DNA of 64,000 nt from a virus (lineage: Duplodnaviria > Caudoviricetes). Shown piece by piece: positions 1,909 through 5,407 of the stretch. The stretch is from IMG/VR virus record IMGVR_UViG_3300019872_000002, positions 1 to 64,000 of that record; one strand, given 5' to 3'. Every line of letters starts with the position of its first letter. Position 1 is the first letter of the stretch. Under the pieces are notes generated by a model. That model worked only from the letters and a program-made list of their open reading frames with translations. It did not search any database and was not told where the DNA came from. A program made the translations under genes and the position numbers.

Positions 1909-2902
1909 ATGGATAAGGAAATGAGCAGATGTAACGAATGGAATAGCGCATTACAGGGCTTTGGGTGGTATTTAGTGAAGCAAGGGTTTATCCTTGACAT
2001 AAGAGGTATAAAGGGTAAATCAGACCGTTATTATGGCGTAGAATTGCACAAGATTATCAATAAGTATTGTAGGGTCAAAAAGATACAGGGAAGTTTTTCA
2101 ACTAGGATTTTAAAAATGAACGAAGACTTCAAATCATTCAGAGAATGGGTAACTGAAAATAGACAAACATATTTAGCCAAATATTTAGATACCAGTGTAT
2201 GAAAACAAGATTTATAGACACAGACAAAAGAATAGCCATATTGGTTATTACCGCAGGGTTGTTGCTCCTTGCTGTGCTTTTGATATGGCACCGGCCAATT
2301 GAACGCCAGGGATATTTCACAATCGAAAAGACAAGCGATAGCGAGTGGCAGGTAAGCCAGACTAATTACCCGGATACAACGATCAGAGATACCGTTTTAA
2401 TTGACGGAATGGTATTGTATCCTACTACCCATTATTTAAGAGTTTTAAATTAAGGGATATGGAAAGTTTAATAGGAAAACAATATCTGTCACGAGATAAC
2501 TCGTATTGCGAAAATCTAAGCAATGGCATAGACCGAATATTAGCCGGTACAGCTTGGCAAGATGCTCAAGTAACTACAATCATTTGCGAGCCATACGATG
2601 ACGAAGTTTCATTTATGGACGTAAAGCACACTTACAAATTCGTCAATGTCCAAGATAGTAGGCGTGAACACCACAAAGTAACGTTTCATCCTCACGGAAT
2701 TGTGACCGAAAGCAATACAGTTGAAAAGATGCTAAACGGTGATCAATTCAGAAATCCAAATGGAGATATGTTTTACTTCGATCATTTTTGATATATGGAA
2801 GAGATCTTAACAGCAATCGAAAAGCATCACCAAACGTCAATATATCTAATGATATTCATCATTTTATGTATAATACTATATAAACCTGAGAAAGAAAAAT
2901 AG
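1909..2902 (+). CDS. Cluster of four small hypothetical ORFs (1909..2202, 2199..2453, 2459..2791, 2795..2902); the second and fourth have one TM helix
   Basis: Abutting or overlapping ORFs in operon arrangement. 2795..2902 (MEEILTAIEKHHQTSIYLMIFIILCIILYKPEKEK) was read manually. Confidence 0.65.
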
Positions 2903-2931
2903 AAATATTTCTCATTTAACACAAAATATCT

Positions 2932-2939
2932 CATCTTTG
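2932..2939 (+). promoter_or_regulatory. Putative Bacteroidota -7 promoter box (CATCTTTG) for the Rep-like gene leader
   Basis: One mismatch to TAnnTTTG, in an AT-rich intergenic gap directly before the structured leader. Confidence 0.45.
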
Positions 2940-2951
2940 CGGTACGATATC

Positions 2952-3101
2952 AACGCATTTGCAGGCAGTCGATAGAGTAAAGTACCAGTTATACAAAGAT
3001 AATCCAGAAGGGTTAGCGAGTCATACAAACAATACATCAACCTAAAAAATCTGCCTGCAAGCGTTTATTTTCGATGTTATTGTTAGACCGCTAACCCTTT
3101 T
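2952..3101 (+). promoter_or_regulatory. Structured 5' leader (long hairpin plus loop pairing; attenuator or pseudoknot-like)
   Basis: 3008-3018 pairs with 3089-3099 (11 bp), extended by 3028-3038/3073-3084. Loop 3051-3065 is complementary to 2952-2968. A T-run follows the stem just before the TTG start. Confidence 0.7.
2994..3001 (-). promoter_or_regulatory. Putative antisense promoter -7 box (TATCTTTG)
   Basis: Exact TAnnTTTG match on the minus strand inside the leader. The nearest upstream TTTG is 24 nt away, longer than the usual spacer. Confidence 0.4.
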
Positions 3102-3104
3102 ACT

Positions 3105-3917
3105 TTGCAACTAAGACCTACATCATTAAGTAAATCAGCAATCATTAACATTGCTACCAATTACGGTAGGGATTATATGAATGCGTACTTATTTGTAAGG
3201 CAATTAGCAAATCAATACAAACACCCGATAATTTTAGATTATAAATCTCAGCTGAATAACATTAGGTTATCAATGGGGGTAAGGGACAAGAAATTCAGAG
3301 AACTAACAAATGAAGCTATCCGCAGCGGTTTAGTCAAAATAGAGGGAAAGCATTTAAGACTCCTTTCCTCCACTAAAGACAGAACATTCAAGACCAGCAA
3401 AAAGAACGATTACTATTCTACATCTAATCCGGCTCTTTTTAAAAACATGGTTTTAATATCATATCATTACCAAAAACAATACGCAATACTACGCAGCAAT
3501 AAAGTTCAACCAGAAATAAGATTAAAGAACAGTGAACAGTATGCCACGTACAATTCAAATAACTACGCTATTACCCTATCTTGTAAGTCAGTTTCCAAAC
3601 TTCTTCAACTTAACTCTACGTCCCAAGCTAAGAAAGCGATAGAGGACTTAACCAGAAGAAACCTAATTAAAGTCACCAAGCACATAGTTAGGATAACAAA
3701 AGAAGAATTTAACCTTGAACTATTATCCGGACGTAAAAACATACGCTACGATAAGGTTAATAAATCATGGTTTAAAATCGAAGCGTCAACATTTGAATTG
3801 AATTTTAACTTCAAAAGGATTACCTATTCTAAATTTGATCACCTACCACAGGAACAGCAAATAATGTATTTGTCACAAGGGTACACCGTAGATCAGATTA
3901 ACAAGATTATAGTTTAG
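3105..3917 (+). CDS. Putative replication initiator / double winged-HTH DNA-binding protein
   Basis: TTG start, basic protein with two wHTH-like segments (IRLSMGVRDKKFRELTNEAIRSGLVKIEG; LSCKSVSKLLQLNSTSQAKKAIEDLTRRNLIKV). The function is inferred. Confidence 0.5.
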   Translation: MQLRPTSLSKSAIINIATNYGRDYMNAYLFVRQLANQYKHPIILDYKSQLNNIRLSMGVRDKKFRELTNEAIRSGLVKIEGKHLRLLSSTKDRTFKTSKKNDYYSTSNPALFKNMVLISYHYQKQYAILRSNKVQPEIRLKNSEQYATYNSNNYAITLSCKSVSKLLQLNSTSQAKKAIEDLTRRNLIKVTKHIVRITKEEFNLELLSGRKNIRYDKVNKSWFKIEASTFELNFNFKRITYSKFDHLPQEQQIMYLSQGYTVDQINKIIV

Positions 3918-3987
3918 GTTTCCTTTTACATCTTATAGTATATTCTAAGCTAGAAATGGCAATTATAAACATATAATCAAAAAAAAG

Positions 3988-5407
3988 ATGAAATACATCA
4001 AAGAAATAAAGTCTCAAAAATTTGAGGAAGCGTTAGGCTTAGATAAAAGCCAAGTAAAAAGATTGAAAAATGCAATAAGTAAAGCTTATGATCAGAATTG
4101 GCATTTAACGGGGCCAAATGTTGACCAGATTAACGCTTTCGTTGCTCCGTATATCAAAACTCAGGAAGAGGCATTTTATGCAGCTCAGGTTATTCTTTCA
4201 GACGTGTACGGGTCAGTCATTGAGAGAAATAAAAACGTGAATTAAATCAGCTTAAACCAACCAAAATAAACAGTATGAAATATGTATCAGAATTAAAAGT
4301 AGGTGAGGCTATTTGGTGCCACACTGGAAGCGAAGAGCGAAGGATACTAGCTTTAGCTAAAAACATTGCAAAGGTTCATTGTTACGATGATGAGGTAGCT
4401 GGTATGACCTCCTCCGTTTTGATTAAAGAAAGTGACGGTTCTTTTAGCCTGCACTCTTCAAATGAGCTAACTATAAATCGCTTATATTATAGCGATGTTC
4501 AAGTATTCACCTCAACAGCATTTGTATGAAAACTTTTCCAAACACCAGAATCGAACAGGATTGGCAACTGAATCAAGACCAACCTATGTACGAATATTTA
4601 TTAAGGCAAAAGAAGGCTCAGGAGGCACGCGATAGAGCGGATATGATACTTTACCTATGGTTTATAGGAAAGTTGCTCTTGTGCGTCCTAATAGCGGTAG
4701 TTTTAGGTATTACCATAGCATCATTAATCTTCAATTGGTAATGAAACTGCTCATCTTCAAAATTTACATCCTGTTTGCATGTTGCTGTTTTTTGTACGGC
4801 CATGCATACGGGTATATGTTAGGCTATTTGATAGCCGGGTTATTCATCATTAAATATTACACAAAATGGCAGAAAAAGAGACAAAGTATGCGCAGGTAGT
4901 CGAGGACTTGAAAGAGCTGCGCAAGGATATGGAGTATACAGAGAGCCGTAGCCAAAGCAGGCAGGTCGCAATATTCCAGAGAAAGATGTTTGACCTCCGC
5001 AAGCAGGTGGACAGAATTATTGACGGACTCACTGTTACTAAAGAATAGGGATATGACAAAAGAAGAGTTTAAAATGAAAATGGAAGAATTGGTTAAGAAT
5101 TTCGGTTCTTATTGGGATGTTGGCAAAGAAATCTATCCAAGTCAATTCCCTGATGAAATGAATGCAGCGGAATGGTTTGAGCAATTTACTATCTATTCAG
5201 AACAAAAATTGTAACATGGAACTCCACAACAAAATAACAATATCAAGGATTATTAAGAATGATCCCCAGCTAGGCTCAAACCTATTGAATGATAAATTCA
5301 AACAGGATGCTTTAAAACAATTGGCAGAGCAATCCAAACTAAGTGAATACTTTTTGGATATTAACTTTAGCCAGGTCAGGTCTATTATTTACGCTCAGGG
5401 GCTTTAA
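3988..5407 (+). CDS. Cluster of small hypothetical ORFs (3988..4245, 4275..4529, 4526..4741, 4741..4899, 4866..5048, 5053..5214, 5216..5407)
   Basis: Tightly packed, translationally coupled ORFs. 4526..4741 and 4741..4899 carry TM segments. Confidence 0.65.

Follow-up and report, generated by a model that had tools for sequence, protein, structure and literature searches.

The window analysed here comprises 64,000 nucleotides (nt), positions 1 to 64,000 of IMG/VR record IMGVR_UViG_3300019872_000002, a virus of the Caudoviricetes (Duplodnaviria). The element in question is a structured leader on its plus strand, directly ahead of a gene that encodes a Rep-like protein. The topology of this leader is that of an intramolecular kissing loop: two hairpins of one plus-strand transcript, termed SL1 and SL2, carry complementary loop segments, K5' in SL1 and K3' in SL2. 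Both the SL2 hairpin and the K5'/K3' complementarity are real and far beyond chance. Judging from the sequences, we hold with moderate confidence that the leader is a cis-acting attenuator or translation gate which acts on the Rep-like gene of the same strand. The coordinates of the features are given in Table 1.

Table 1. Features of the leader of the Rep-like gene and its surroundings, in positions of the window.
Feature	Position	Strand	Sequence or partner	Remark
-7 promoter box, Bacteroidota-type	2932–2939	+	CATCTTTG; consensus TAnnTTTG	conserved across leaders
SL1 hairpin, K5' in its loop	2941–2986	+		constrained fold
SL1 stem	2941–2945/2982–2986; 2948–2951/2971–2974	+	GGTAC/GTACC; TATC/GATA	
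K5', 5' partner of the loop-loop helix	2952–2968	+	AACGC, 2-nt bulge, TTGCAGGCAG	
CAAAG in the linker between SL1 and SL2	2994–2998	+	complementary to CUUUG 3103–3107	minimum free energy (MFE) fold
Candidate pre-emptor mini-hairpin	3000–3015	+	TAATCC 3000–3005, loop AGAA, GGGTTA 3010–3015	nascent-transcript fold
SL2, long imperfect hairpin	3008–3099	+	11-bp perfect base, AAGGGTTAGCG 3008–3018/CGCTAACCCTT 3089–3099	
K3', 3' partner of the loop-loop helix	3051–3065	+		apical loop of SL2
U-rich tract	3098–3107	+	TTTTACTTTG	right behind SL2, TTG start codon at its end
Rep-like gene, 270 amino acids	3105–3917	+	TTG start	two winged-helix domains
12-nt palindrome	2901–2912	none	AGAAATATTTCT	chance feature, outside the element

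The perfect base of SL2 was found by an inverted-repeat search, while the upper part of the hairpin pairs imperfectly in the folds. An earlier note on this DNA had described a long hairpin (3008–3038 with 3073–3099) in front of TTTT and a TTG start, and the analysis bears this out in full: TTTT lies at 3098–3101, the TTG start codon at 3105–3107, 5 nt past the SL2 stem, the base covaries, and the sequence folds better than all of its shuffled versions. For a region of 286 nt the native fold beat 200 of 200 shuffles on each strand (z = −3.2 for the plus strand and −3.5 for the other). In the MFE fold SL2 is further extended by the pairing of CAAAG with CUUUG, i.e. with the start codon and its two preceding nt. 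The inverted-repeat search also yielded the 10 perfect base pairs (bp) between the K5' core TTGCAGGCAG (2959–2968) and CTGCCTGCAA (3051–3060), and beyond the 2-nt bulge AACGC (2952–2956) and GCGTT (3061–3065) add 5 more bp. The complementarity of 3051–3065 with 2952–2968 had been noted before and is corroborated by covariation in 18 leaders, but the upstream partner, then seen as an unstructured segment, lies in the loop of SL1. No tRNA or tmRNA was found in the window, and no Rfam family reached its gathering score there. With relaxed thresholds (2780–3200, E ≤ 5) the sole match was mir-90 on the SL2 hairpin, which was judged spurious.

Leaders for comparison were taken from the regions upstream of homologues of the Rep-like gene and from viral contigs with hits to a pattern of the SL2 base. 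This gave 19 leaders, of which 18 are distinct. The pattern scan of the viral contigs returned 38 hits that were mostly due to chance, and the module was present only in L019, L022, L031, L032 and L043. In all 18 distinct leaders the cognate K5' and K3' segments are complementary at the same position over a Watson-Crick run of 7–14 bp (9–14 bp with G-U pairs included), and the sequence is different in each; examples are UUGCAGGCAG, CUUGGCGGACG, CCACUGCCAAG, CGCUGUGGUAGG, GACCCUGGCAGG, CACCGUUGCAAAG, GCCAAGCGCCC, CCUUGGUCAGCA and UCUUGCAACGGAUU. The covariation among homologous leaders that the earlier note had proposed to look for is present. When all leaders were compared with all others, the best runs of non-cognate combinations had a mean of 5–6 bp, and in 15 of 18 rows and 16 of 18 columns of the resulting matrix no other run equalled or exceeded the cognate one. 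The calculated duplex energies repeat this cognate diagonal.

Two types of leader, A and B, were distinguished (see below). In type A leaders K5' begins 22–29 nt from the start of the −7 box, and in 16 of the 18 leaders, both types included, 31–45 nt separate the end of K3' from the start codon. For the SL2 base, RNAalifold on eight leaders returned 14 basal pairs, six of them with compensatory changes; in L067 (~560–700) the base is fully strand-flipped, with CCCUAAUCG/CGAUUAGGG in place of the common GGGUUAG/CUAACCC. Similarly, 11 type A leaders were folded, and in most of them K5' is enclosed by an SL1 of differing stem sequence, the stem in L060 being weak or unclear. Because the sequences of the loop pair, the SL2 base and the SL1 stem all vary while complementarity is kept, we conclude that base pairing is maintained here and not the recognition of a fixed sequence by a protein, and we regard this observation as decisive. 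A search of the genome for a third copy of the pairing sequence turned up only the K5' core TTGCAGGCAG, repeated exactly at 966–975 on the plus strand inside a C5-methyltransferase gene. Chance would give ~0.07–0.15 copies of this 10-mer, and the repeat was taken as a chance occurrence.

Type A comprises the leaders of the window, L002, L004, L008, L019, L022, L043, L031, L060, L067, L069, L070, L005 and L010. Its order is a plus-strand −7 box of the TAnnTTTG type, SL1 with K5' in the loop, a linker of 20–35 nt, SL2 with K3' in the apical loop, a U-rich tract and the start codon. Type B comprises L003 (1011–1170), L006 (2787–2950), L012 (1279–1450), L066 (~520–700) and L068 (~220–395). Here K5' follows the −7 box at the extreme 5' end; next come an intrinsic terminator of canonical form, another TAnnTTTG-like box and K3', and a short hairpin abuts the start codon. 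The internal terminator was flagged by a terminator scan in L066 and L012. No terminator or second promoter was found between SL1 and SL2 in the window or in any type A leader. The two types are intermixed among close protein relatives, the protein behind L066 being 45% identical to that of the window.

A −7 box is present at the same position relative to SL1 in every leader examined. Measured against TAnnTTTG, 6 of 6 specified bases agree in 11 of the 19 leaders and 4–5 of 6 in the remainder; TTTG can be read 19–22 nt upstream of the box in several leaders. The box is probably the promoter of the leader, and transcription would start a few nt downstream of it. At the other end, at least 4 U within ~6 nt past the stem can be read in 13 of the 14 type A leaders. 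The start codon, which is TTG in 15 of the 19 leaders (12 of 14 in type A), is the first in-frame start that the homologues conserve and follows the U-run or the helix by ~1–14 nt in type A. Pairing of the start region with CAA(A/G) or an equivalent is seen in most leaders of either type, namely in L002, L004, L019, L022, L005, L010, L066 and L068 besides the window. In the window the SL2 base GGGUUAG/CUAACCC is followed by UUUU, which places a terminator-type hairpin between the promoter box and the start of the Rep-like gene, and a scan of the leaders revealed no box resembling a promoter between SL2 and the start codon. With a conserved plus-strand box in front, a U-tract behind SL2 and no promoter between SL2 and the start, the Rep-like gene should therefore be expressible only through SL2.

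To what genes the module belongs was analysed with a covariance model built from eight leaders, which was searched against five complete related genomes of 73–77 kb. One copy each was found in the window's genome, G003 and G004, and two each in G001 and G002, and all of them sit before Rep-like genes or the remnant of one. The model detects leaders of the GGGUUAG type only; L005, L010, L067, L069, L070 and the type B leaders were missed at E ≤ 0.01 and were analysed by script. The copies in L019, L022 and L043 precede a 264-amino acid protein with a TTG start that is only distantly related to the window's protein, with an hhalign probability of 91% at 17% identity, and which matches PHROG replication initiation families, HTH_36 and RP-C. 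The second copy in G002, whose loop sequences are its own, lies ahead of a further Rep-like paralogue; that in G001 is followed by an 8-codon remnant of a window-type Rep N-terminus. In both genomes the paralogous leaders carry different pairing sequences. The module is specific to Rep-like genes, which supports the idea that the leader controls the initiator.

Arrangements of this kind were located in two of the related phages. In L031 (1857–2263, minus strand), which belongs to the same 73-kb phage as L019, a second module and an 8-codon remnant are followed by ~400 nt of GC-richer DNA devoid of open reading frames (ORFs) and then by an RNase H-like gene; Rfam gave no match in the ORF-less stretch. 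L060 (735–1663, minus strand) and L022 (6833–7003, minus strand) are parts of one 76.6-kb phage with two Rep-like paralogues, each with its own leader and loop-loop sequence.

The TTG at 3105 is the right start of the Rep-like gene to judge from sequence comparison, because the homologues conserve the N-terminus from that codon onward (MELRQ.. aligning with (M)QLRP..). The gene-caller product on the record (214 amino acids, ATG 3273, 3273–3917) is probably too short, as 56 residues upstream of it are conserved in the homologues. The protein itself gave no significant Pfam or PHROG hit. Its homologues are known only from metagenomes and uncultivated viral contigs: the phage GenBank collection contained no DNA or protein match, and no relative was found among the 185,579 species genomes of GTDB, hence no prophage copy either. 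A profile search gathered a family of 114 representative relatives. Winged helix-turn-helix Pfam domains (HTH_24, HTH_36) occur in distant members of this family, whose PHROG matches bear the names replication initiation protein, DnaD-like helicase loader and replication initiation O-like. Against the PDB, the family profile found the staphylococcal RepA_N structures 4pql and 5kbj at E 0.002.

The AlphaFold (AF2) model of the protein (pLDDT 92) shows two winged-helix domains, WH1 at residues ~28–100 and WH2 at ~155–238. Foldseek against the PDB returned Rep/RepE54 as top matches, which are weak (E 0.05–0.3; none at E ≤ 0.001), and VIA-align returned generic winged-helix matches at Z 6–8 that include the multidrug-resistance (MDR) plasmid initiator 4pta at Z 6.3. 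Two tandem winged-helix domains are likewise typical of iteron-type Rep initiators (RepA/RepE/Rep_3-like), but no convincing family of direct repeats, i.e. of iterons, was found in 2400–4400. The earlier note had placed a Rep-like gene behind the structured leader. The gene is there, with its two winged-helix domains and with the PHROG and RepA_N matches of its distant relatives, but its identity as a replication initiator is plausible and not proven. The plasmid-like prophage state which that note had envisaged found no support. In the complete 77-kb genome no tyrosine integrase, resolvase, ParA (AAA_31) or ParB was found, and there is no prophage copy in the GTDB genomes. Additionally, neither a DnaB-type helicase nor a family A polymerase was found in the complete genome.

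As to the surroundings, the genes of the window (1–64,000) are plus-strand genes as far as ~22 kb and minus-strand genes thereafter, and the GC skew changes sign near 22–24 kb. Between the upstream gene and the leader there is an unannotated 35-codon ORF (2796–2901, plus strand) with the hydrophobic core IYLMIFIILCIILY; its TAG stop overlaps the palindrome at 2901–2912.

According to the mechanism that we propose, the plus strand at 2932–3107 would provide the Rep-like gene with its promoter and with a 5' leader of ~165 nt. The SL1 loop and the apical loop of SL2 would form a kissing helix of 10+5 bp that locks both hairpins and stabilises the OFF fold. Locked SL2 would then act as an intrinsic-terminator-like attenuator and in part also occlude the UUG start via CAAAG/CUUUG. 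Only a minority of transcripts or ribosomes would reach the initiator gene, and a protein of which little is needed would be made at a low and closely controlled level. We read SL2 as an attenuator that partly occludes the start because its GC-rich base with flanking A's and U's is terminator-like and because the start codon ends the U-rich tail. The form that terminators take in these phages can be seen from the canonical ones within the type B leaders.

Opening the region from −15 to +12 of the start codon is calculated to cost 12.2 kcal/mol in the window, a value at the 93rd percentile among 61 control genes. The leaders taken together have a median of 7.5 versus 5.6 kcal/mol (P = 0.026), a modest excess. 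With this modest support from the opening energies, occlusion of the start site as the sole mechanism was rejected. The UAAUCC/GGGUUA mini-hairpin may serve as a pre-emptor against the SL2 base. It forms in the nascent-transcript fold, is mutually exclusive with the SL2 base and occurs in nine of nine GGGUU-type leaders at −2.9 to −6.2 kcal/mol. Taken individually, these mini-hairpins are marginally better than those of shuffled linkers (P 0.02–0.34), which is weak evidence.

Several observations weigh against a cis-acting attenuator or gate. The fold energies do not separate the two strands (total −338 versus −324 kcal/mol); since folding energy is not decisive, the plus strand was assigned from the promoter box, the U-tract and the gene. 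With ~90 nt, SL2 is far above the typical length of a terminator, and the terminator scan does not flag it. L069 is a type A leader without U-tract, and the start region of most GGGUUAG-type leaders is not unusually occluded. Apart from the weak mini-hairpin, no strong mutually exclusive antiterminator was found. Furthermore, a perfect helix of 10–14 bp exceeds the need of a purely structural clamp, and the layout of type B hints that K5' may also work as an RNA of its own.

The latter two points can be taken in favour of a 'built-in antisense' regulator encoded on the same strand, in which SL1/K5' would be the active part and K3' its target, the regulator acting after processing or in trans between leader molecules. 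The dosage of K5' RNA would then feed back on the expression of the Rep-like gene, amounting to a sensing of copy number. The layout of type B, found on equally related genes (L066, L068, L003, L006 and L012), is indeed that of a separate small RNA gene of ~60 nt in tandem with its target. The pairing, perfect and long (10–14 bp), resembles that of small RNAs with their targets, and the paralogous leaders of one genome (G001, G002) differ in pairing sequence. Nevertheless we consider this regulator unlikely for the window. Here and in the other type A leaders the absence of a terminator or promoter between SL1 and SL2 leaves K5' tethered to K3', and therefore intramolecular pairing should win. 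Nor was a processing signal recognised, or a match to Rfam C4 or any other family obtained.

The regulator favoured in the earlier note was a minus-strand countertranscript, starting near 2988 from a TATCTTTG box, that would compete with K3' for K5' as in IncI/IncB plasmids or drive attenuation as in pT181. Its logic is coherent, as the loop of such an antisense RNA would mimic K3'. The plus-strand CAAAGATA at 2994–3001 does correspond to an exact TATCTTTG box of the TAnnTTTG type on the minus strand, ~6 of 10 other type A leaders have a 5/6 minus-strand match in the same linker, and a weak A/U-rich minus-strand hairpin with U's is found around 2903–2933 of the window. The significance attributed to the box did not survive comparison, however. 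TAnnTTTG occurs 86 times in the window as against 79.5 ± 7.7 times in shuffled sequence, i.e. at chance frequency, and an exact (6/6) minus-strand box is present in none of the 10 other type A leaders scanned, in which the best match in the linker is at most 5/6 and is absent in several. The plus-strand CAAAG, moreover, has an explanation of its own in its pairing with the CUUUG of the start: box-like sequence appears on the minus strand because any complement of a YUUUG start must read as a −7 box on the other strand.

A conserved end of the countertranscript is likewise missing, since no minus-strand hairpin with a U-run recurs beyond SL1 across the leaders. The palindrome at 2901–2912, which had been placed near that end, does exist. 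As the window contains 14 perfect 12-nt palindromes where 21 ± 4 are expected, and as this one does not occur in the other leaders, the role assigned to it fell away. There is no leader peptide, no conserved small ORF being found in the 19 leaders, and in type B leaders K5' is supplied from the plus strand. The antisense transcription unit found no support, and we regard a countertranscript as quite improbable.

We see similarly little chance that SL2 and its U-tract terminate an early operon lying upstream, or close an independent small RNA gene of ~165 nt, with the Rep-like gene being reached by incidental read-through. The SL2 base with A's before and U's after it looks terminator-like, and the upstream genes are on the same strand. 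Against this stand the occurrence of the module, with its own −7 box, only before Rep-like genes whose proteins are down to 17% identical, the position of the start codon within the U-rich tail in nearly all leaders, and upstream genes that vary between the phages. An element at the DNA level, be it inverted repeats as protein sites (Rep operator or origin) or origin cruciforms beside the initiator gene, would agree with the frequent location of origins and autoregulatory operators next to rep genes and with the similar fold energies of both strands, but is very improbable, given that the crossing loop-loop topology is impossible in duplex DNA, that the pairing sequences vary freely with complementarity kept, even where two leaders share a genome and among Rep-like proteins of 17% identity, and that the vicinity yielded no iterons or direct repeats.

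That initiator genes are controlled by RNA is textbook knowledge for plasmids and for a few enterobacterial phages (P4, P1). Hosts of the Bacteroidota type have weak Shine-Dalgarno pairing and little is known of their regulatory RNAs, and to our knowledge nothing comparable has been described for phages of such hosts. It is conceivable, and we put this forward tentatively, that the leaders form an undescribed class of RNA control of Bacteroidota-type phage initiators, 'self-addressed' in that a same-strand K5' is directed at a private address of 10–14 nt, K3'. This class would come in two interchangeable architectures, a cis kissing-loop lock on a terminator or start-occluding hairpin, and a separate small RNA that is set free by its own terminator beside a second promoter. 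If so, the separate-RNA form would be a sensor of gene dosage (copy number) like the antisense RNAs of plasmids, but encoded on the sense strand, and the paralogous initiators of one genome would be kept orthogonal by their differing addresses. The motif is compact and covaries strongly, and with two architectures and 18 natural variants it lends itself to direct tests with compensatory mutants in reporter fusions. The leaders offer a natural set of orthogonal RNA-RNA addresses. They also mark a probable replication initiator gene, perhaps the origin region, in uncultivated phages of ~75 kb that are without their own polymerase and helicase.

Among the known systems, the c4 RNA of phages P1 and P7 (immI operon) is a regulatory RNA encoded ahead of its target, on the same strand and in the same transcript, whose loops pair with downstream sites; C4 RNA is excised by RNase P. 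The window's leader shares with it a putative same-strand regulator ahead of the target, K5' and K3' both lying between the plus-strand −7 box and the TTG, an arrangement also found with the CI RNA of phage P4. The target of c4 is an antirepressor operon and not a replication initiator. C4 is an antisense RNA that regulates ant (PMC8201110). No match to Rfam C4 was obtained here. For the immunity of satellite phage P4, the summary in PMC4825925 (citing Sabbattini 1995 and Briani 2000) describes CI RNA as pairing with seqA and seqC in the leader of the replication (alpha) operon, with premature transcription termination as the outcome. By this account, regulator and target are again on the same strand in one untranslated leader, and their pairing controls replication genes. 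The differences are that the present leader has no sequence or Rfam similarity to it, contains one partner pair in two hairpin loops of a short leader and no recognised processing, and that the host is apparently of the Bacteroidota type and not an enterobacterium, in a genome without a lysogeny module.

In the repZ/repA leaders of the IncI-alpha and IncB plasmids (ColIb-P9, pMU720), pairing of a leader hairpin loop with a distal mRNA sequence is central to initiator control, according to PMC8053102 (citing Asano and Mizobuchi 1998 and Praszkier and Pittard 2002). As there, a loop in a rep leader pairs here over a long range within the same mRNA. The IncI/IncB systems, in contrast, need the opposite-strand Inc RNA or RNAI and a translated leader peptide (repY/repB), and their distal partner is beside the ribosome-binding site of rep. 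The analogy drawn in the earlier note does not extend to these features, as the leader has no conserved antisense unit, the 19 leaders have no conserved leader-peptide ORF, and the partner K3' lies in the apical loop of SL2, in nearly all cases 31–45 nt before the start.

With pT181, pIP501 and pAMbeta1 the leader has in common a terminator-type hairpin and U-tract just ahead of the rep start (for the pT181 type, see PMC8053102). In those plasmids, however, a countertranscript switches between pre-emptor and terminator, whereas here a countertranscript is unsupported and the pre-emptor candidate is weak. In the copy control of the plasmids ColE1 (RNAI/RNAII) and R1 (CopA/CopT), the control region of the replicon likewise has complementary hairpin loops that pair with each other. 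There one loop belongs to the sense and the other to the antisense transcript, which makes the complex intermolecular, while here both loops are on one plus-strand leader and form a helix of 10–14 bp.

By analogy, the logic of the leader thus appears closest to P4 CI/seqA-seqC and P1 c4, and next to the IncI-alpha/IncB pseudoknot and the pT181-type attenuators. It belongs to none of these systems, because an Rfam match, a leader peptide and a conserved countertranscript are all missing, and because the type of host is different. RNA control of an initiator as such being known, what sets this leader apart is its unusual cis kissing-loop design, together with a sister architecture that apparently has a separate small RNA.

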